Assembly: GCA_963662285.2 (NCBI GenBank)
Contig: CAXXMV010000008.1
Span: forward strand, 1,408,001-1,472,000
Source of the DNA: a bacterium
GTDB taxonomy: Bacteria; Hinthialibacterota; Hinthialibacteria; Hinthialibacterales; Hinthialibacteraceae
Direction: 5' to 3'
Length of the DNA: 64,000 nt
Positions 44,916 through 58,201 of this stretch are shown here, piece by piece. The first letter of the stretch is position 1; each line of letters opens with the position of its first letter. The notes beneath the pieces were generated by a model. It did no database searches and was not told the DNA's origin. It worked only from the letters and a program-made list of their open reading frames with translations. The position numbers and the translations under genes were made by a program.

Positions 44916-45746
44916 TCACCAGCCGCCGCTGGCGCCTCCGCCGCCGGACATGCCGCCGCCGAAGCCTCCGAAACTGCCTCCACCGCCGCCCATGCCGCCG
45001 CCGAAATGAGAACCGCCGCCCCAGTGGCTGCGTCTACCTCCGCCGCCCATCAGCATGTAGAGCAGAAAGAGTTTGGGGTTGCGCACGAAAAAGATAAACA
45101 TGACTATGCCCATAATCATGGGCAGAAATCCACCAAGGGGCGAACCACGCTTGGAACCCTGTTGGCTCTTGCGGCTAGGGGCGGGACTAACCGCGCCGCT
45201 TATTTGAAACTCGCTCAACGGAATATTGCGGTCCTTGGCGATTTCAGCAATTAACGCGGCTGACAGGTTTAATAATCCTTCACCATATTTCCCCTGTCGA
45301 AAATAATCGGGCAGAAGAGTGCGACCCAGTTGTGATGCTTTTACATCCGGGATGACGCCTTCAAGGCCGTAGCCGACTTCGATGCGCCATTTCCGGTCTT
45401 TTACTGCTACCAAAATCAGCAGACCGTCATTCTCTCCCTTACGGCCTATGCCCCATTGTTCAAAAAGAGCCACAGCGGCTTCTTCAACCGTGCCATAACC
45501 GTGTTCTTTCAAATTATTTATGGTCACTACAGCAAGTTCAGCTTTGGTTTTCTGTTGCAGGGCTAAGGCGAGTTGATTTATTCCCTGCTCGGATCGCTCT
45601 GATATGACATTGCCAAAATCAGAGACGTAATTGCGCGGTTCAGGCCAAGGCTTCTGAGCGGCGACAGTATAACTTGCCGTAATAAAAACCAATAGCAAAA
45701 TCAGCCCGAGGCGGACTTGAAGATTTCTGTAATATTTACTTGTCAT
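44916..45746 (-). CDS. TPM-domain (YgcG-like) membrane protein with Gly-rich tail
   Basis: YVSDFGNVI, WGIG..NDGLLIL..RIEVGYGLEG, C-terminal GGGMSGGGGASGGW. Confidence 0.93.
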   Translation of the reverse strand: MTSKYYRNLQVRLGLILLLVFITASYTVAAQKPWPEPRNYVSDFGNVISERSEQGINQLALALQQKTKAELAVVTINNLKEHGYGTVEEAAVALFEQWGIGRKGENDGLLILVAVKDRKWRIEVGYGLEGVIPDVKASQLGRTLLPDYFRQGKYGEGLLNLSAALIAEIAKDRNIPLSEFQISGAVSPAPSRKSQQGSKRGSPLGGFLPMIMGIVMFIFFVRNPKLFLLYMLMGGGGRRSHWGGGSHFGGGMGGGGGSFGGFGGGMSGGGGASGGW

Positions 45747-50632: not shown

Positions 50633-50924
50633 CTTTATATTCTTTCAGCATCTGTTCATAGCGGTAACAGCGTGCTTCCAGTTCTTTTAACTTAGTTTTA
50701 TGCTGAGTTAAATCGCTGTCTTTCTGACTGAGTAGATTTTCCAGATTTCCAAGATGTTTAAGAAAATCAGCAATATTCTCTTCTTTGTCGGTCAGCATCT
50801 TTTCGAGATTATGGGCGTGTTCGAGCAAACCCTTGCGATGCTCTTCCGCATCGTACAAACGGGATTTCAGCTCTTCCAACTCCCGCTCTGATATATTGAT
50901 GTTATCTTCTATATTATTTGACAT
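50616..50924 (-). CDS. Small coiled-coil protein
   Basis: Heptad pattern with repeated H..NLE..L; overlaps the methyltransferase start. Confidence 0.7.
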   Translation of the reverse strand: MSNNIEDNINISERELEELKSRLYDAEEHRKGLLEHAHNLEKMLTDKEENIADFLKHLGNLENLLSQKDSDLTQHKTKLKELEARCYRYEQMLKEYKDETDA

Positions 50925-51120
50925 GATCTTTGGCTAATATCCATTATTTCCGGTCTAAGTTCAATAAGTTTGCATCATTAGAGCGATGGTTAAAATAACG
51001 AGCATCAATGCGTTTGTTAACCGGTCTAGTATTTCTGTATTTTATCATAGTTTTAAGACTAAGCCTCCATCTGAAAGAGAGGTTTGCATAAAAACGTTAA
51101 TATTTGTGTTTAAAAAAGGC

Positions 51121-51157
51121 AAAAAAGCAGGTGAGGTATTTCCAACCTCACCTGCTT
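51121..51157 (-). terminator. Strong intrinsic terminator
   Basis: 11-bp stem GCAGGTGAGGT/ACCTCACCTGC, 7-nt loop, followed by T6 on the minus strand. Confidence 0.88.
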
Positions 51158-51573
51158 ATTAGATATAAACCGTTGTTTCGCTTTGTTTTAACCTACTCAC
51201 AACGGATGTTTTTAGTGTGGCCGGTTAGGGTACACAGGGATCGGCCATAGATTTTGCTACTGCCGTCTACCCATAAGAACAGCAAAACTGCAATCCTTCA
51301 CAATAAACGGTTGATAAATGGCCGCAATAAATCCCGAATCTATATTTACCTGGGAACCATATAATGGTGTAATTCTTTCGCCAAAAGTCAATCAGACTAA
51401 AAAGAGAGTTTCTTGCACTCGCCCACTGAGAGACTGCGAATTGTTGCTCAAAAAAATAACAGTTGTTGAAACAAAAGCAATTCCGGGAAAAACTAAAAGA
51501 CAGACCCATTGCGATGAACCCCTAACCGGCGTGATCCATCCATGGATCTAACTTGCCTTCCCTGGCATGACAT
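51121..51573 (-). ncRNA. Candidate ~450-nt structured RNA transcribed from a sigma28 promoter
   Basis: Promoter and terminator bracket a gene-free region. Two ANGGAN hairpins, an 11-bp long-range stem (51220-51230 with 51520-51530) and nested stems. Confidence 0.6.
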
Positions 51574-51579
51574 AATTAA

Positions 51580-51606
51580 ATATCGGCTAAAAATGAAAAA
51601 TCTTGA
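51580..51606 (-). promoter_or_regulatory. Sigma28 (FliA) promoter
   Basis: TCAA-N15-GCCGATAT on the minus strand versus the consensus TAAA-N15-GCCGATAA. Confidence 0.8.
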
Positions 51607-51760
51607 TACATAAAAAGTCTAAATCATAAAGCAATTAGAACTTTCCGGTCTTTCGATTGTATTATTATGACTAAGTAGATTATGTATCAATCTGGATATC
51701 CAGTATTTAAAGGATGATCAGGATTTATCATTGGGCAACCTCGGTGGAAGGATCGTTATC

Positions 51761-51788
51761 GGGAAACCACAAGGGAATTGCACCCTAC
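51761..51788 (-). repeat. GTAG-type REP
   Basis: GTAGGGTGCAATTCCCTTGTGGTTTCCC on the minus strand. Confidence 0.5.
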
Positions 51789-51869
51789 TATTGGTTTGTA
51801 TATTTTTTTGCTAGTATTTATCAATGGATTTTATTTGAGAGTCGAAATAATTAAAAAGGTGAAATTAAA

Positions 51870-53153
51870 ATGAGAAAATGGATTGTTGCGATTGTTTATA
51901 TCTCGATTCTTCTTGGCTTCACGCCCGGCGTGTTCTGCGATGGCATCAAAGCCGGTTTTGCAAAGACAGAGATCACACCTCCTATAGGAGGCAATACGAC
52001 TGGATACTCCTCTGCAAAACCTACAGATGGGGTTCATGATCCTCTCTTCGCCAAAGTTTTGATTCTTCAATCAAGCGGAACAGTTATGGCGATTGTTTCT
52101 TGGGATTCATGCATCTTCAATTCGCCTTGGCTGCATGATCAAATGGCTGATTTGGGCATTGATCACTTGCTGCTTCTTAACACCCATACTCACGCAGGCG
52201 CCAACCTGAATCAAATGGATTTCCCATCAACCGAAAATCCCTGGCGCAAAACCGTGGAGCAACGCACTTTGGAAGCCATCAAAGAAGCCCAGTCTAATAT
52301 GTTTTCCGCTTTTTTCTCGGCTGAAAACGGTGCTATTCAACTGGGATATAACAGGCTGGTACGTCAACCGGAAGGACATTCTCTCACGCAGTTCGAGAAT
52401 CCAGACCGGATTCCTGTTGGTCCGGTTGATCCAACGGTTGGAGTGATCCGCATTACCGATGACGCAGGCAAGAATAAAGTTGTACTGGTTTGCTATGCAT
52501 GTCACCCGGTTGTTTTGGGTCCTAAAAACCGCAAAATCTCTGCTGATTATCCAGGCGTTATGTGCCGGGAAGTTGAAAAAGAATTGGGCGACGGCGTTCA
52601 ATGCATCTTCATCCAAGGCGGCGCGGGAGATATTAATCCGCTGATCTTAGCCCGAACCGGCGATGCTGAATTGGATTTTCCACTGGTGGAACGGATGGGA
52701 ACGCTACTCAGTGAAGAAGTTATAAAAACTTTCAAAAGAATGGAAGATGTTGAAGGAAAATCGGAATGTTTCTCTTATAAATCTAAAACACTTGAAACAA
52801 CCAATCGCTGGGAGCCTGAAAGCAAAATGCCTATCAGCGTAACCTCTGTGTTAATTAATCAGGAAATTGGAATAGTGACAATGCCCGGAGAACCGTTTCA
52901 TAAGTTCCAGGTTGATCTGCGCAATAAGTCAACCCTACCTCATACCTATTTCTTCGGGTATTGCTGCGACTCACCTCATGATTGGGCGCGTTACATTCCC
53001 GATCTTGAATCGGCGGCGCGCAGCGGGTATGGCGCAAGCGATACTACAATAGTTGAAGTTGGAACGGGAGAACGTCTGATAAATCAAGGTTTGGTCATGC
53101 TCTATGAAATGCGGGGTAAATTGATTGATAAACCGCAAAGGGTTGTTAAATAA
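51870..53153 (+). CDS. Neutral/alkaline ceramidase-like secreted hydrolase
   Basis: AGFAKTEITP, HDPL, THTHAG, YACHP, ISADYPG, QGGAGDINP, PGEPF. Confidence 0.85.
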   Translation: MRKWIVAIVYISILLGFTPGVFCDGIKAGFAKTEITPPIGGNTTGYSSAKPTDGVHDPLFAKVLILQSSGTVMAIVSWDSCIFNSPWLHDQMADLGIDHLLLLNTHTHAGANLNQMDFPSTENPWRKTVEQRTLEAIKEAQSNMFSAFFSAENGAIQLGYNRLVRQPEGHSLTQFENPDRIPVGPVDPTVGVIRITDDAGKNKVVLVCYACHPVVLGPKNRKISADYPGVMCREVEKELGDGVQCIFIQGGAGDINPLILARTGDAELDFPLVERMGTLLSEEVIKTFKRMEDVEGKSECFSYKSKTLETTNRWEPESKMPISVTSVLINQEIGIVTMPGEPFHKFQVDLRNKSTLPHTYFFGYCCDSPHDWARYIPDLESAARSGYGASDTTIVEVGTGERLINQGLVMLYEMRGKLIDKPQRVVK

Positions 53154-53380: not shown

Positions 53381-55234
53381 TTACTCCTGTGTTTTATCAA
53401 TCAGTAATATATTAATGGGCGCCATGGGATCCGATGGTGGATTGGTGTGGCAGGTTTTGCATTGATCCAGATCAGCATGATGGCCGTTGGTTTTATGTTC
53501 GGTGTGGCAAGGGATGCACAAAGCATGCATGGCTTCGAAATAACTACGGGCGGCATAGTTGTTCTCTTTGGAATTTTCAATATTTTTGAATAATTCTTGA
53601 TGGCATGTGGTGCATCTTTTTACCGTTACTTTTGATTTTGATTGATCAGCCGGATGACATTGAACGCAGGATTTATTGCCCTTCATCTTTTCTACATGAG
53701 ATTCATGATTAAAAATAGAAGTAGTATTATACATGTCGCTATGACATGACGAGCATGAACTGACGCCATCTTTAGGAAGGTTGGCGTGATGACACTTGAT
53801 GCAGCCTTCTTTGGCGCCAAGCATATCAGATAATCTTTTGGCATGATCCTTATGATCAAACCTGACGAATTCGTTGGAGCGGTTGCCATCAATGGTGAGG
53901 ATATCCAATCCGCGAGCTTCTTGTACGGGAGCATCCAAAGCGCGATAACCGGAGAACGCCGTTCCCGGTAATAGAGCAGCAGTTATGCCTACCACGAGTA
54001 TGCTGATGGTAGAAAATACCAGGACATTCTTTCTGAAACTATCTCCCAGATATACATTGGATACAGCATCAAAGACTGGCGCAGAGTATTTGATTTTATC
54101 CTGAGCCGCTTCTGCATGATCTTCATCAATAAACAGCTTGAAATTTTCTGCGCAGAAGATGTAAACCAAAGCGGCGCCGCTTACCAGTGAGGCGCTGATC
54201 ATGATCTCTATCCACGTCGGAAAATAAACTGATCCAGGTAATTTTTGTATAGCAATAAGACCTACGTCGAAGCGGTATAACACCATACCGAAAACAACCA
54301 TGATGGAACATGCCAGCAGAACATCCGACCTGGCCCGCAGTGAAGCGAATGAAAGCAGGATTGCGGGAATCAAGGCGCTGACCATGATTTCAAAGGTAAA
54401 GAGCATGCTTTGCCAGGAAGGATCGAAAAGCAATCCTATTTGACCGCGGACAGTGAGATCAATCAAACGCAAAGCAACGTAAAGGAATAAGACAATAGAC
54501 GCTGCTTTACCTAATCCAGCCAGTAGGTGTTGTTTGGGTTTATGATTAAAGAGCCATGTGGAGAAGAATGATTCCAAGGTCACCATCATCAAACCAAGGC
54601 CAATGGCGGTTACAAAGAACAATAACGGCAGCAAAGGCGAATACCAGAGCGCATGTAACCGATGAGGCATAATAAGGAATAATGAACCGAGAGAAGATTG
54701 ATGCAGAGTCGAGAGAACGATACCCGCGATAACCAGGGGTATGGTAGCCCATTTGAGCATACGGTGGATGGTTTGCAGCAAGGGATGTTGCAGCCATTTA
54801 TGCTCGAAAACCACTGGAGCGAACTCCAGCGCCAGTACGGTTAAGTAAAGCATCACGCACCAGGCCACTTCAAACAACACGGAATGGTGCTGCCAGTAAA
54901 TCATGGCATGCCAGATGCGCCAGGGGATGCCCAGATCGAACATCAGCCCGATGCCTACAGCGTTATAACCCAAAAACGCCGTTAATACCGCAGGTCGCAC
55001 AATGGGCTTGTATTTATCCAGGTGGAAGATATAAACCGTGGCGGCGATGACAAATCCACCGGCGGCCAGAGCAACGCCTCCCATTACATCGAAGACAATC
55101 CATAAGCCCCAGGGAACGTCATCGCTTAAATCGGTCACTACTCCCAATCCCGAAATAAAACGGGTGATAGCGAGGACGATGCCAACCGAAACCAATGCCC
55201 AAAGAATGGATTTAACTGTATTGAGTCTATTCAT
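53381..55234 (-). CDS. NrfD/HybB/HmcC-family membrane subunit fused to a hexahaem cytochrome c
   Basis: PWGLW..D...GVALAAGG, STLHQSSLG, about 11 TM helices; six CxxCH motifs (CIKCH, CSSCH, CVQCH, CTTCH, CIPCH, CKTCH). Confidence 0.92.
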   Translation of the reverse strand: MNRLNTVKSILWALVSVGIVLAITRFISGLGVVTDLSDDVPWGLWIVFDVMGGVALAAGGFVIAATVYIFHLDKYKPIVRPAVLTAFLGYNAVGIGLMFDLGIPWRIWHAMIYWQHHSVLFEVAWCVMLYLTVLALEFAPVVFEHKWLQHPLLQTIHRMLKWATIPLVIAGIVLSTLHQSSLGSLFLIMPHRLHALWYSPLLPLLFFVTAIGLGLMMVTLESFFSTWLFNHKPKQHLLAGLGKAASIVLFLYVALRLIDLTVRGQIGLLFDPSWQSMLFTFEIMVSALIPAILLSFASLRARSDVLLACSIMVVFGMVLYRFDVGLIAIQKLPGSVYFPTWIEIMISASLVSGAALVYIFCAENFKLFIDEDHAEAAQDKIKYSAPVFDAVSNVYLGDSFRKNVLVFSTISILVVGITAALLPGTAFSGYRALDAPVQEARGLDILTIDGNRSNEFVRFDHKDHAKRLSDMLGAKEGCIKCHHANLPKDGVSSCSSCHSDMYNTTSIFNHESHVEKMKGNKSCVQCHPADQSKSKVTVKRCTTCHQELFKNIENSKENNYAARSYFEAMHALCIPCHTEHKTNGHHADLDQCKTCHTNPPSDPMAPINILLIDKTQE

Positions 55235-56021
55235 TATCAGTCTCTTTTAACTCAGTCTCTTTCAACTCAGACTCTTCACCATTGGCGAGTTTCATCCGCC
55301 GTTCAATTATCCAATAAGTTCCGGCCATAACGCCAGCCATGCCAAGAGCGACGGGAGGAACTTTACTCAATGCCGCCCAGGTCAGATCAGGCAACGGTTT
55401 GTCGCCTATGTCCGGCTTCCAGGCCAGGAATTCCAAAGGAACATTGGAGATGTAGAGAACAGATGTTCCTCCAACCTCTTTTTCACCGAAAACTTTATTG
55501 ATATAGCCATCAGGATTATCAGCAATCCGTTGTTTGGCGATTTTAAGCAATTCATCGCGGTCGCCAAAGATAGTCGCCTGCTGTCTACATTCACTGGTAC
55601 AGGCAGGCGAGCCGTCATCTTTGATTTGTTCATAACATAAAGTGCATTTTTGGATATAGGGAACGGGAGATTTCCACTCATAGCGTGGGATGCCGAAGGG
55701 ACAGGCCATCATGCAATAGCGGCATCCGATGCATTTTTTCTTATCATAAATCACAGCGCCTTCGGGCGTTGTTTGCAGCGCTCCAACGATGCAGGCCGAA
55801 GCGCAGGCCGGTTTAAGGCAATGACGGCATTGCTTGCGGACAAAACTGGTCTGGTCATCTTTTTTAATATGCAAGACGCTGGTATATCGCTCGCCGGAAA
55901 GACCATCGCGGGAACGGTAATCTTTTTGGGGGATCGCCGGTAAGCCATTCCGTTTAGAGCATGCTTTAACGCAGTCGCCGCACCCGATACATTTTGTAAC
56001 GTCGGTCAGGATGCCTTTCAT
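55227..56021 (-). CDS. 4Fe-4S ferredoxin subunit (HybA/HmcB-like)
   Basis: CIGCGDCVKAC, CRHCLKPACASAC, CIGCRYCMMACP, CTLC..PAC..EC; C-terminal TM; ATGA overlap with the upstream stop. Confidence 0.92.
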   Translation of the reverse strand: MKGILTDVTKCIGCGDCVKACSKRNGLPAIPQKDYRSRDGLSGERYTSVLHIKKDDQTSFVRKQCRHCLKPACASACIVGALQTTPEGAVIYDKKKCIGCRYCMMACPFGIPRYEWKSPVPYIQKCTLCYEQIKDDGSPACTSECRQQATIFGDRDELLKIAKQRIADNPDGYINKVFGEKEVGGTSVLYISNVPLEFLAWKPDIGDKPLPDLTWAALSKVPPVALGMAGVMAGTYWIIERRMKLANGEESELKETELKETDNE

Positions 56022-56719
56022 ATCGGTTTCACCTCGCCGTGAACCTGGATTTCCACATCGCGTCCTGCTTCCGGCGGGAATTTCCATGCCAGTTCAGAGG
56101 TAACGCGAATAAAGGGATAGAGGATGCAATGAGTTATTTTGCTGAAGGGCGCCAGAATCATTAGAATATTACCCGCCATTGAATGAAAGAACATAGTGGT
56201 TGCATAAGGGACGGGATTATATGGCCTGGACGCGATATAGCCTGTTGTGAAAATCATTAATAAAAGAATTAACAAGAAGTAATCCATGAAACCGCTGATC
56301 TGGCGGGTAGTGCGGGTGAAGATGCGCAATACCAGCAGAATCGCTCCCGATGCTAAAGCGGCTAATGTTATAATATCAGCGATGGATTTCGGTAACGCGG
56401 GCCACCCGAATCCAATTCCCGACCTCCAGAGATTTATATGGTCCATAAGAAATAATGGAACAATAATCAATCCGACATGGAAGATAAATGACGAATAACT
56501 GGTTAATGGCAGGTTACGGTGCAGTCGATGTATGGGAAACATCCATGATATAACTCTTAAAATCATTTTTCCATAAGCATTATCACGATCCCGCGCACGG
56601 TAGATCATCTGGATAATGCCCCAGACGGCAAAGACGATATGCTGTAAAAATCCCAGAACCATAATTATGAAACAGAGCCTGAAGATCGGTCCTTGTGCGT
56701 ATGCCAATATTTCCTGCAT
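56018..56719 (-). CDS. NarI-like cytochrome b subunit (HmcE/TmcC/DsrM-like)
   Basis: Five TM helices; His residues in FIFH, MDH, FFH, PFSKITH. Confidence 0.88.
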   Translation of the reverse strand: MQEILAYAQGPIFRLCFIIMVLGFLQHIVFAVWGIIQMIYRARDRDNAYGKMILRVISWMFPIHRLHRNLPLTSYSSFIFHVGLIIVPLFLMDHINLWRSGIGFGWPALPKSIADIITLAALASGAILLVLRIFTRTTRQISGFMDYFLLILLLMIFTTGYIASRPYNPVPYATTMFFHSMAGNILMILAPFSKITHCILYPFIRVTSELAWKFPPEAGRDVEIQVHGEVKPI

Positions 56720-56788
56720 ATTGCATGCTCCTTTTTGTCAGAAAAAACGTACAGAATTGCGTTGCTTAGGGGTATAACGAATTATATA

Positions 56789-58201
56789 TTAATCAGTTTT
56801 TTCATTTTCAGGAAAACGTATAGCGCGAAGAATGAGGTCGTGCAATCCAACGACTTTTGCGGGGATTTTGTAGTATTCGATGATTTCCTTAAGTTGTTTT
56901 TTACAATTGGCGCAAGGGGCAATTACCAGTTCGGCGCCTGTAGCTATTATTTGATCCGCTTTAATTTTGCCGGTGACTTTCATACGGTAATCGTATACCT
57001 CATCAACCGAAACGGTCCCGCCGCCGCCGCCGCAGCAGTAATTTTCAGCGCCATGCGGAGTCATTTCGACGAAATTTTTAATAAATGAATTAATAATCTC
57101 TCTGGGTTGATCGACGATCCAGCCGGAACGGGCCATGTTGCATGGATCATGATATGTAACGGTCTCGGTAATAGCATCGGGATCAAGTTTAATCTTGCCA
57201 TCATGGATAGCGTTCATGGTGTATTCCATAATGCTGATAACCGGGATTTCTTCGCCTGTGTTAAAGGTGTTAACGAAGGCTTTGGAGGAGCGTGAAGCAT
57301 GGCCGCATTCACCCGTCAGAATCTTTTTACCTTTTAAGCGCCGCACTTCTGATATTTCTTTGTCGATGATGCGCCCCAGGATTGAATCGTTATAAAACAA
57401 ACCGTAATTGATGCCATCGAAATACTTGGTTCCGATGGTCCAGTTATCCTGGTCGCCGGCGGCGTAAAGCACCGCCGCATTTCCCATGAGCGTGTCCGGC
57501 TCAAGCAGGTAATCGCTGACTGCCGGGAAGAAGACATATTCGCGGTCTTCCTGATCAATGGGGAATTTGATTGTTTTGCCGGTTAATTCTTCCAATTCCT
57601 CTTCGAGGAATTCACAAGTATCAATCATGGCTGGAGCGGGTATAGCTGAGGTATTAGCTGATTTGCCCTCCAGTTGTTCACGGACGCTGACCAGAAGCGC
57701 TTTGGGAACGATGCCCATCTCGCTGAGAATATTACGCGCCAAGCGCATAATCAAAGCATGATCGACTCCCATGGGACATTCGAGGCTGCAACGACGACAG
57801 CCTGTGCAGTCATAAAAAGTGTCCAACATTTGATCAATAGTATCATCCTGCAAACCGGGGTCGCCCAGCATCCTACCGCGCAGCCAGCCACCGAGAGTGA
57901 AGTGTCTACGGTAAATATCGAGTAATATACGGGAACGTGCGCAGGGGACATCTTCGGGATCACCGGAAGCCTGATATATCTGACAGGTTCCAGCGCACCG
58001 GGCGCATTTGGTGGTAGCTTTGGAATAAATATCAATTAATGGCCCATAGTTGCTATGCCGTAAGATGGCTGCGAAAATTTCCAGGAATCGTTTTACCCGG
58101 CCATCCTCTAGAGGCGATTCAATATAATAGGGATATTTCTTGGGTTCTTTTTCAGGCGCCGCTTGCTTTTCTTGATCAAGTGATTCGACTTTAGAAGCCA
58201 T
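56789..58201 (-). CDS. HdrD-like Fe-S/CCG protein (HmcF/TmcB/DsrK-like)
   Basis: CARCAGTC, CTGCRRCSLECP, GECGH, YHDPCN, CCGGGGG, PCANC. Confidence 0.9.
   Translation of the reverse strand: MASKVESLDQEKQAAPEKEPKKYPYYIESPLEDGRVKRFLEIFAAILRHSNYGPLIDIYSKATTKCARCAGTCQIYQASGDPEDVPCARSRILLDIYRRHFTLGGWLRGRMLGDPGLQDDTIDQMLDTFYDCTGCRRCSLECPMGVDHALIMRLARNILSEMGIVPKALLVSVREQLEGKSANTSAIPAPAMIDTCEFLEEELEELTGKTIKFPIDQEDREYVFFPAVSDYLLEPDTLMGNAAVLYAAGDQDNWTIGTKYFDGINYGLFYNDSILGRIIDKEISEVRRLKGKKILTGECGHASRSSKAFVNTFNTGEEIPVISIMEYTMNAIHDGKIKLDPDAITETVTYHDPCNMARSGWIVDQPREIINSFIKNFVEMTPHGAENYCCGGGGGTVSVDEVYDYRMKVTGKIKADQIIATGAELVIAPCANCKKQLKEIIEYYKIPAKVVGLHDLILRAIRFPENEKTD

Follow-up and report, generated by a model that had tools for sequence, protein, structure and literature searches.

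A truncated paralogue of the 5' part of an SPM-domain mRNA as a candidate CsrA-binding RNA in the Hinthialibacteraceae

What is encoded by a locus that has a promoter motif and a terminator of its own and in which no gene had been recognised? This question is raised by positions 51606-51121 (minus strand) of the 64-kb stretch analysed here (64,000 nucleotides of contig CAXXMV010000008.1; hereafter the window). An earlier, sequence-only reading had taken the locus for a stand-alone late-flagellar RNA that may titrate CsrA. Sequence comparison indicated that the element and the 5' part of the mRNA of an SPM-domain (PF26745) gene are paralogous, the element being truncated, that a long-range helix over the former ribosome-binding site has been kept in it, and that it could serve as a CsrA decoy.

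Read on the minus strand, the element starts with a sigma-28 (FliA)-type promoter at 51606-51580, in which TCAA (51606-51603) is followed by a 15-base spacer and GCCGATAT (51587-51580). Two hairpins, seen both in the sequence and in the minimum free energy (MFE) fold, come next and form putative CsrA sites 1 and 2: hairpin 1 at 51567-51554 (UGCC-AGGGAA-GGCA, a GCC/GGC stem with an AGGGAA hexaloop) and hairpin 2 at 51548-51533 (GAUCC-AUGGAU-GGAUC, with an AUGGAU hexaloop). The GGA of hairpin 2 lies 20 nucleotides (nt) from that of hairpin 1. An 11-base-pair (bp) long-range stem, likewise seen in the sequence and the MFE fold, joins GCCGGUUAGGG (51530-51520) with CCCUAACCGGC (51230-51220). According to the pairing prediction, the long-range helix has a 5' strand at 51530-51496, which holds a Shine-Dalgarno-like UUAGGGG and a conserved AUG (51509-51507), and a 3' strand at 51262-51220, which runs ...GGCCGAUCCC...CCCUAACCGGC. 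Hairpins 1 and 2 sit outside this helix. Further downstream, a 3' hairpin CCGUUGU...ACAACGG (51205-51170) was recovered by the MFE fold and by RNAalifold; it is kept in the four closest sequences, and one of its 8 pairs is changed on both sides. The terminator scan placed an intrinsic terminator at 51157-51121, with a 13-bp stem (51157-51125) and a six-U run ending at 51121. Thus, the promoter, the two hexaloop hairpins, the 11-bp stem, the 3' hairpin, and the terminator are all present where the sequence-only reading had put them. Its description of the terminator as 11 bp followed by six U residues was right in the terminator and the U run and wrong in the stem length, which is 13 pairs in the scan.

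As judged from these features, the element is an independent transcription unit of ~453 nt, with a predicted start at ~51573 and a predicted end at ~51121. When 51580-51121 was folded without constraints, both hairpins, the 11-bp stem, the CCGUUGU hairpin, and the terminator were all recovered. The energy of this fold was -138.3 kcal/mol (z = -3.93), and none of 100 dinucleotide shuffles was as stable. The terminator scan found 1 site; shuffled sequences gave a mean of 1.1, so that the site count alone is not significant. Compensatory substitutions were observed in the terminator stem, in which 5 of 9 pairs are changed on both sides among the window's element (L001), its close relative on a metagenome contig (L046), the G017 element (L002), and the G005 element (L003). 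A terminator hairpin and U run 3' of the 3' arm were recognised by eye in 7 of 10 elements. The gene at 51870 (plus strand), a ceramidase-like open reading frame (ORF; PF04734, 40.2 bits), is divergent from the element, as had been noted. No Rfam family had been expected, and indeed there were 0 matches at the gathering score in the whole 64-kb window. At E<=10, a search of 651 bases gave 14 weak matches, all of which were far under the gathering scores, with no CsrB/CsrC/RsmX/Y/Z-type family among them.

The kinship with the SPM gene was shown by a covariance model, R1, of the 5' block, for which 10 elements and 2 gene leaders were used. In the window's genome (G000; 7.29 Mb, 8 contigs, an uncultured lineage), R1 at E<=0.01 gave two hits only, the element at 110.7 bits and the SPM gene leader (C2:1678500-1678618; 46.9 bits, E 1.3e-6). 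A regular expression for the twin hairpins, run over the 7.29 Mb, found the same 2 loci and no others. Because R1 and the regular expression hit just the element and this leader, we take the element for a shortened paralogue of the 5' part of the SPM gene mRNA. The start codon of the gene family (M-D-P/L) is matched in the alignment by the conserved AUGGAUC of the element. Elements scored 88-111 bits with R1 and intact-gene leaders 16-82 bits, the high scores of the elements being partly due to the construction of the model. The SPM gene of G000 is intact (371 amino acids, aa; contig 2, 1677403-1678618, minus strand; L056/L077) and is the only match to the family protein in that genome.

A blastn search with the element gave matches in 10 of 19 same-family genomes and in 0 of 21 genomes outside the family, and the matches were limited to query positions 35-145, which correspond to the promoter, the hairpins, and the 5' arm. 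In 8 of the matched genomes, the long-range stem was found 200-480 nt downstream with no conserved coding sequence after it. The matches in G004 and G012 were the leaders of genes of 415 and 388 aa, respectively, in which the start codon is the AUGGAUC motif and the 3' arm falls within the coding sequence, where it is translated as S-L-T-G or S-F-T-G. Element and SPM gene leader have the promoter, the two hairpins, the Shine-Dalgarno sequence, and the start-codon motif in common, and in 7 genomes the gene has the helix too. The family protein (~370-500 aa) consists of a non-conserved N-terminal region, a YLxLIRxLSKD helix, and a C-terminal DPLVLDLDGDG...ELFGDQ domain. By comparison, the element has neither the YLxLIRxLSKD helix nor the calcium-binding-like domain of the C terminus and ends ~100 nt past the 3' arm; no SPM-like or calcium-binding-like C-terminal domain sequence was found in or after it. 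The "extra folded domain" of the sequence-only reading therefore has to be abandoned: it is the former N-terminal coding region inside a helix found in the parent mRNA as well.

The name SPM (PF26745) is a precomputed label that comes with automatic names such as "calcium-binding", and a Pfam and NCBIfam scan of the family protein gave only sub-threshold EF-hand matches. A homology search at E<=0.001 returned 1401 relatives, labelled Omnitrophota, Hydrogenedentota, or Hinthialibacter. Throughout the order, the gene family has the sigma-28 promoter and the twin-hairpin leader, the latter in rows L055, L057, L059, and L060. Among the SPM relatives L047-L060 and L070-L079, the helix was seen in 7 genomes to join the Shine-Dalgarno sequence and start codon to codons ~75-125. 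In the literature searched, no paper mentions the accession of the SPM family, and nothing links the SPM domain with flagella; among the papers listed for FliA-dependent secreted calcium-binding proteins, none was relevant.

The long-range helix was compared among relatives. With 41 nt taken as the 5' strand and 49 nt as the 3' strand, 16 of 16 sequences gave a duplex of 22-34 pairs, and in every one of them the Shine-Dalgarno-like GGG/GAGG and the start codon lie inside it. In the window's element, 23 pairs are predicted at -35.7 kcal/mol, the best of 210 alternative windows; the helix was the best of ~200-210 windows in 13 of the 16 sequences. Compensation in the helix core was observed as a change from U-A to C-G in G010, G006, and G013 and from U-A to U-G in G019 and G014, and UUAGGG/CCCUAA of the core has become UGAGGG/CCCUCA in G004. 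GAUCCC pairs with AUGGGUC, and in L003 the pairing is maintained as GAUUCC/GGAUC. The RNAalifold consensus of the four closest sequences contained 74 pairs, 20 of which showed a compensatory change. Beyond the core, cognate strands paired at -22.6 kcal/mol versus -18.5 kcal/mol for non-cognate strands, a value reached by 0 of 5000 permutations; the register was unconstrained in this test, relatedness inflates the difference, and the 3' window of L046 was misplaced. The sequence-only reading had proposed a check for conservation and covariation in relatives, and these were found: the 5' block was present in 10 of 19 genomes by blastn and in 16 of 20 by the covariance model, and the helix with compensatory changes in 16 of 16 sequences.

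The strands are separated by 200-480 nt, and the enclosed domain (~120 to 400 nt) is unalignable between genera outside a few motifs. One of these is an interior hairpin, GAG-UGCAAGAAA-CUC (51420-51406), which was read by eye; its loop is conserved and its stem varies (GAG/CUC, AGAG/CUCU, and GGAU/AUCC in L001, L046, L002, and the G010 element, L007; also by eye and without a formal count). This hairpin is absent from the RNAalifold consensus of the four closest sequences. In L002 and L003, an internal copy of CCCUAACG ~90 nt after the 5' arm is a possible alternative partner for GUUAGGG of the 5' arm; this copy is absent from the window's element. The enclosed domain of L007 is about twice the length of the others (483 nt between the arms) and contains, by eye, repeated GGGTTGCGATCCG-like units and 14 GGA (shuffle P 0.011), which suggests an internal duplication. 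Pairing in trans of the element's 3' strand with the mRNA of the helix-less gene was rejected: over six genome-matched pairs, the cognate mean was -16.1 kcal/mol versus -17.9 kcal/mol for non-cognate pairs, and the cognate partner ranked first in 1 of 6.

The distribution of element and gene was then compared over 20 genomes of the family. The stand-alone element occurs in 9 genomes of 8 genera (G000, G017, G001, G009, G010, G016, G005, G006, and G019), in addition to L046. In 7 other genomes (G002, G018, G004, G012, G013, G014, and G008) the gene carries the long-range helix and there is no separate element; each gave one R1 match, which was the gene leader. G011 has a helix-less gene and no element, and both gene and element are missing from G003, G007, and G015. 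Two protein queries failed to find the gene in G005, G006, and G019 (94-98% complete), in which the element is kept. In the gene copies of G000, G017, G001, G009, G010, and G011, no partner strand for the helix was found, the best downstream window having a z of -1.9 to -2.8; the gene copy of G016 was only partly inspected. In the same test, z was -4.0 or lower in 4 of 7 helix-bearing genes and -3.3 or lower in 8 of 9 elements. A pattern scan of metagenomes gave 11 loci, of which 9 were unrelated chance matches, one (L037) duplicated L004, and L046 was new. A scan of genome contigs gave 7 relatives, all of them known from the genome search.

The surroundings of the element are partly conserved. 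An ABC ATPase gene lies upstream in 5 genomes (G001, G006, G010, G016, and G019), and a convergent GFO/IDH/MocA oxidoreductase gene lies downstream in G006, G019, and G017. Among the loci compared, no neighbours were common to element loci and gene loci. The simplest history would be one duplication in the ancestor of the family, followed by lineage-specific loss of either the element or the arm of the gene. Such duplication and loss would give the observed reciprocal pattern only if the helix-bearing RNA itself were under selection.

RNA libraries were also searched for the element. Of 21 runs listed, 20 contained words of the element, and 10 of these were recorded as RNA. Four RNA runs from 4 studies gave whole contigs of 237-306 nt with 95-99% identity, all inside 51247-51558, and three of the RNA contigs end at 51557/51558, ~15 nt inside the predicted start, which is a weak hint of a 5' end. 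These contigs cross the junction between hairpin 1 and the interior (51247-51558); hence, uncut molecules exist. The four runs gave no cover of the flanks 50700-51246 and 51559-52000, which carries no weight under the rule of that search, and the other runs, with shares of 0.03-0.21, were left out of the comparison. Separately, an RNA contig of run X5 (record 3) matched 51513-51549 only, and both of its sides continue like the G017 element. Because the flanks of this contig resemble that element, a relative's element is present in the RNA library of run X5. As to the claim of a stand-alone late-flagellar RNA, its own terminator, unrelated neighbours, and RNA contigs confined to the unit agree with it; the orphan status that it implied did not survive, the element being a paralogue of the 5' part of a gene.

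The flagellar and CsrA context that had been predicted for the genome was present. In G000, FliA is encoded (236.8 bits against a cut-off of 189.6), csrA is directly downstream of fliW, and there are 7 flagellin-like genes. These seven genes (L011-L017) are unusually long, with open frames of 796-930 aa. The flagellin leaders L012, L013, and L014 (L011 less clearly) carry a GCA(A/C)GGAUGC hairpin and an AGGAGGA Shine-Dalgarno sequence and are hag-like. Of the 20 family genomes, all have csrA and 19 have fliW; in G019, the sole genome in which fliW was missed, csrA lies at a contig end. The promoter T[CTA]AA[G]-N15-GCCGATA is kept in 10 of 10 element sequences (alignment A1), and the same motif lies upstream of the SPM-family gene of G000 and of flgM. 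More precisely, TTAAAG-N15-GCCGATA occurs in G000 at C6:1039671 (plus strand) and C2:487234 (minus strand), before a FlgM homologue (114 aa; PF04316, 26.1 bits) and a DUF5610 protein, which are likely to be further members of the sigma-28 regulon on the basis of this motif. The DUF5610 protein has 228 aa and begins ..MIDPINS.

All 12 sequences of alignment A1 have GGA in both loops, and the loop bases next to it vary. The core of hairpin 1 (GCC-A.GGA.-GGC) is invariant, and the loop of hairpin 2 is A-N-GGA-N with variation at the N positions only. Over 29 aligned leaders, 95% of cells in the twin hairpins pair, 3 of 8 pairs show double changes, and the covariation score was reached by 0 of 500 shuffles; this alignment was fitted to the model and contains one spurious and two partial rows. 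In the same alignment, the helix of hairpin 1 was 100% paired, with 2 of 3 pairs changed on both sides, and the stem of hairpin 2 was 96% paired, with compensatory changes from A-U to G-C or U-A. In the ribosome-site region, UUAGGGG and AUGGGU within the 5' strand of the helix are counted as further sites of this kind.

How does the element compare with known systems? CsrA dimers bind pairs of GGA loops at about the spacing seen here, 20 nt. The hag leader of B. subtilis has a SigD/sigma-28 promoter, one hairpin CsrA site, and one Shine-Dalgarno site, fliW adjoins csrA, and Hag, FliW, and CsrA form a switch. The hag-like architecture is that of the flagellin leaders of G000; the element instead has two hairpin sites and no flagellin. 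In general, it fits leaders of the hag/flaA type in the promoter, the fliA/csrA/fliW context, and the GGA sites, and differs from them in that only an unconstrained 80-codon frame and then the terminator follow. CsrB/CsrC and RsmX/Y/Z of Gammaproteobacteria have ~5-22 sites and belong to lineages mostly without FliW. Like these small RNAs, which are stand-alone transcripts with GGA in hairpin loops, the element has a promoter motif, a terminator, and unrelated neighbours that fit such a transcript. The CsrB/RsmZ RNAs antagonise CsrA, which for the element is predicted only. Unlike them, the element has two exposed sites, a sigma-28-type promoter, descent from an mRNA, and no Rfam match. In hok-type mRNAs, which are inhibited by fold-back, a distant downstream strand closes the ribosome-binding site; the likeness to the element is one of mechanism only, these being toxin-antitoxin or phage systems with no CsrA module. 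CsrA systems of the FliW type are not known to have antagonising small RNAs.

The closest counterpart is the flaA leader of C. jejuni. In the report by Dugar et al. (2016, PMC4894983), this leader is described as having two GGA hexaloops with a 21-nt spacing and as both being repressed by CsrA and titrating CsrA, in a FliW-CsrA system without sponge small RNAs. The twin GGA-loop architecture of flagellar leaders, which the sequence-only reading had recognised in the element, is borne out by the invariant GGA 20 nt apart, akin to flaA (PMC4894983). Element and flaA leader have in common the late flagellar regulon, the FliW-CsrA system, the twin GGA hexaloops, and an RNA that can, or for the element would, draw CsrA from other flagellar targets. 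The two differ in that flaA is a full flagellin mRNA, whereas the element is a separate paralogous locus with its own terminator, no conserved coding body, and a helix of 22-34 bp burying the Shine-Dalgarno sequence and the AUG. The full flagellin mRNA is the sole RNA-level antagonist described in a FliW-type system (PMC4894983). At the level of abstracts, we found no report of a sigma-28-driven stand-alone CsrA-binding RNA in a FliW system.

Taken together, these findings lead us to see the element as an RNA that descends from an mRNA of dual function and that most likely serves as a CsrA decoy within the FliW-CsrA circuit, a view in which CsrA binding is presumed and to which we give an even chance. 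The origin of the element would lie in a duplication of the 5' part of the SPM-domain mRNA, a late-flagellar message controlled by CsrA, of which the intact copy is still on contig 2. It would have inherited the promoter, the twin GGA hexaloops 20 nt apart, and the long-range helix, lost the conserved coding body, and gained an end in its own terminator. Transcribed alongside flagellin and other late genes, it would be closed by the helix, which would shut out ribosomes and clamp the two ends together while the two hairpins remain exposed. The untranslated RNA would then bind CsrA at one high-affinity site and draw it off the leaders of flagellin and the SPM gene, alongside FliW. In relatives without the element, the helix-bearing mRNA, or a fraction of it, would do both jobs; after the one duplication, each lineage would have retained the helix module in just one of the two copies.

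A wider proposal, which we put forward tentatively and consider rather less probable, is that the helix and the twin hairpins form an autonomous regulatory RNA module, housed either in an mRNA or in a gene of its own. Lineages would have repeatedly kept exactly one helix-bearing copy, so that selection would act on the RNA and not on the protein, and the stand-alone form would be the first dedicated RNA antagonist of CsrA in the FliW-type (ancestral) Csr system. If the element does bind CsrA, it would be the link so far missing between mRNAs of dual function and RNAs that serve only as sponges, and would offer a clean natural case in which a protein gene, once duplicated and truncated, gave rise to a regulatory RNA gene. 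In the parent gene, the burial of the Shine-Dalgarno sequence and start codon in this helix is in its own right a control feature not described before, and the gene family concerned is widespread and unstudied.

Several points weigh against the decoy proposal. CsrA binding, titration, and the direction of the effect are what we infer, unlike the anatomy, the homology, the conservation, the reciprocal distribution, and the presence in RNA libraries. The RNA contigs show presence only and are mute on strand, ends, and abundance. Enrichment of GGA in the enclosed domain was found at P<0.05 in 3 of 10 elements and not in the other 7, and only two GGA loops are exposed; on these grounds, a multi-site sponge of the CsrB/RsmZ kind is out. 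Helix-less gene leaders keep both hairpins, so that titration alone fails to explain a separate helix-bearing RNA, and 4 of 20 genomes (G011, G003, G007, and G015) are without the helix module despite csrA in all. The helix of the gene is weak in G012, G002, and G018 (z -2.6 to -3.0; 17 of 200 and 6 of 209 windows as good). The reciprocal pattern draws support from an RpoB tree, in which the element genomes do not form one clade and well-supported branches force at least 3 changes in the element state and at least 2 in the helix-gene state; this is a quick single-gene tree, however, whose outgroup entry G024, on a very long branch, is an incorrect or over-long ORF, and in which the sequences of G017 and G008 are incomplete. 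In the SPM protein tree, which is too poorly resolved to assign orthology, helix-bearing and helix-less genes do not form two clean clades. Further points arise from the reading frame described below.

The element could still be an mRNA that yields a small, fast-evolving protein from the inherited start codon under the control of CsrA and the sequestering helix, which we consider an outside chance. The frame starts at the AUG that is homologous to the start codon of the parent gene and has 80 codons in the window's element (51509-51267). Frames from this AUG have 80, 73, 89, 63, and 76 codons in L001, L046, L002, L006, and L008, respectively, with a stop 0-33 nt before the 3' arm; dinucleotide shuffles stayed open as far in 18, 52, 72, 66, and 57 of 2000 cases, low numbers that count for a coding frame. 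Furthermore, the lone indel inside the frame between L001 and L046 is 21 nt long and in frame, and the helix is no bar to translation in the relatives whose gene carries it. These open frames and the in-frame indel suggest that translation may matter in some lineages. Against a protein, however, a stop codon comes after 32, 15, 18, and 9 codons in L003, L004, L005, and L007, and L033 is without the AUG, so that the frame is open in 5 of 10 elements and closed or without AUG in the other 5. Between L001 and L046, the ratio of nonsynonymous to synonymous substitution rates (dN/dS) was 0.81, with 10/12/13 differences by codon position, and the 7 variant sites in near-identical RNA contigs were 5 nonsynonymous and 2 synonymous. 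The 80-aa product had no Pfam or NCBIfam family, and a search of 5.8 billion predicted proteins, kept to one length class, returned no homologue, its own entry included. Phe, Cys, Trp, and Tyr are abundant in the product, which is what reading a U-rich RNA would give, and nucleotide conservation continues beyond the stop codon into the 3' arm. The frame is probably a vestige of the N-terminal coding region of the parent, and the earlier statement that there is no recognisable gene is right in that there is no conserved coding body, and too strong in view of the 80-codon frame from a conserved AUG and the protein-coding relatives.

A functional RNA with a main job other than CsrA titration seems somewhat less probable than the small protein: the duplex and the enclosed domain would act, for example as a substrate or docking site for an RNase specific for double-stranded RNA or for another protein, or as the precursor of a short twin-hairpin RNA. 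It is the helix and not the hairpins that is reciprocally kept, helix-less genes retaining the hairpins; the conserved interior loop GUGCAAGAAA stands on a varying stem; and the duplex is 22-34 bp long, a length suited to RNase III. However, the enclosed domain is unalignable between genera and ranges from ~120 to 400 nt, no partner was identified, and the contigs over the junction of hairpin 1 and the interior show uncut molecules. That the locus is an inert relic, a decaying truncated duplicate of the SPM gene with its old promoter and leader, we regard as unlikely. Its homology to the 5' part of an intact gene family, a frame without protein-level constraint, and the 4 of 20 genomes without the helix module would all agree with decay, and the sequence-only reading had held that homologues with an intact gene would make this a decayed gene. 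Intact-gene homologues do occur, in 7 genomes. On balance, retention as an RNA is nevertheless better supported than inert decay, because the element is kept in 8 genera, including 3 genomes without a detected protein gene. Its persistence in 9 genomes at a partly conserved locus also argues against a relic, as do the near-invariant promoter, loops, and helix core beside an interior that has diverged past alignment, and the compensatory changes in the helix, hairpins, and terminator. Elements moreover outscore gene leaders on R1 (partly by construction, as mentioned above) and are present in the RNA libraries of four studies. Finally, a cis-acting leader or attenuator of the next minus-strand gene, a 102-aa coiled-coil ORF at 50924-50616, is very improbable. 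This ORF has the same orientation and lies ~200 nt past the terminator; the terminator between them is strong, the ORF was matched only by the close relative L046 among the compared loci, and the next gene in G017, G019, and G006 is the convergent GFO/IDH/MocA oxidoreductase gene. Regulation of the downstream ORF in cis was accordingly rejected in view of the terminator and the lack of conserved neighbours, and the decoy remains the reading that we prefer.

Two other regions of the window were noted in passing. A run of redox genes lies at 53381-58201 (minus strand) and has, by eye from the translations, the look of a Dsr/Hmc-type membrane complex; its members include a 617-aa membrane protein with C-terminal multi-CxxCH, a 4Fe-4S protein (55227-56087), a 233-aa membrane protein, and a 470-aa Cys-rich protein. 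At 44916-45746 (minus strand), a 276-aa protein carries a long Gly-rich C-terminal tail (GGGGSFGGFGGGMSGGGGASGGW).

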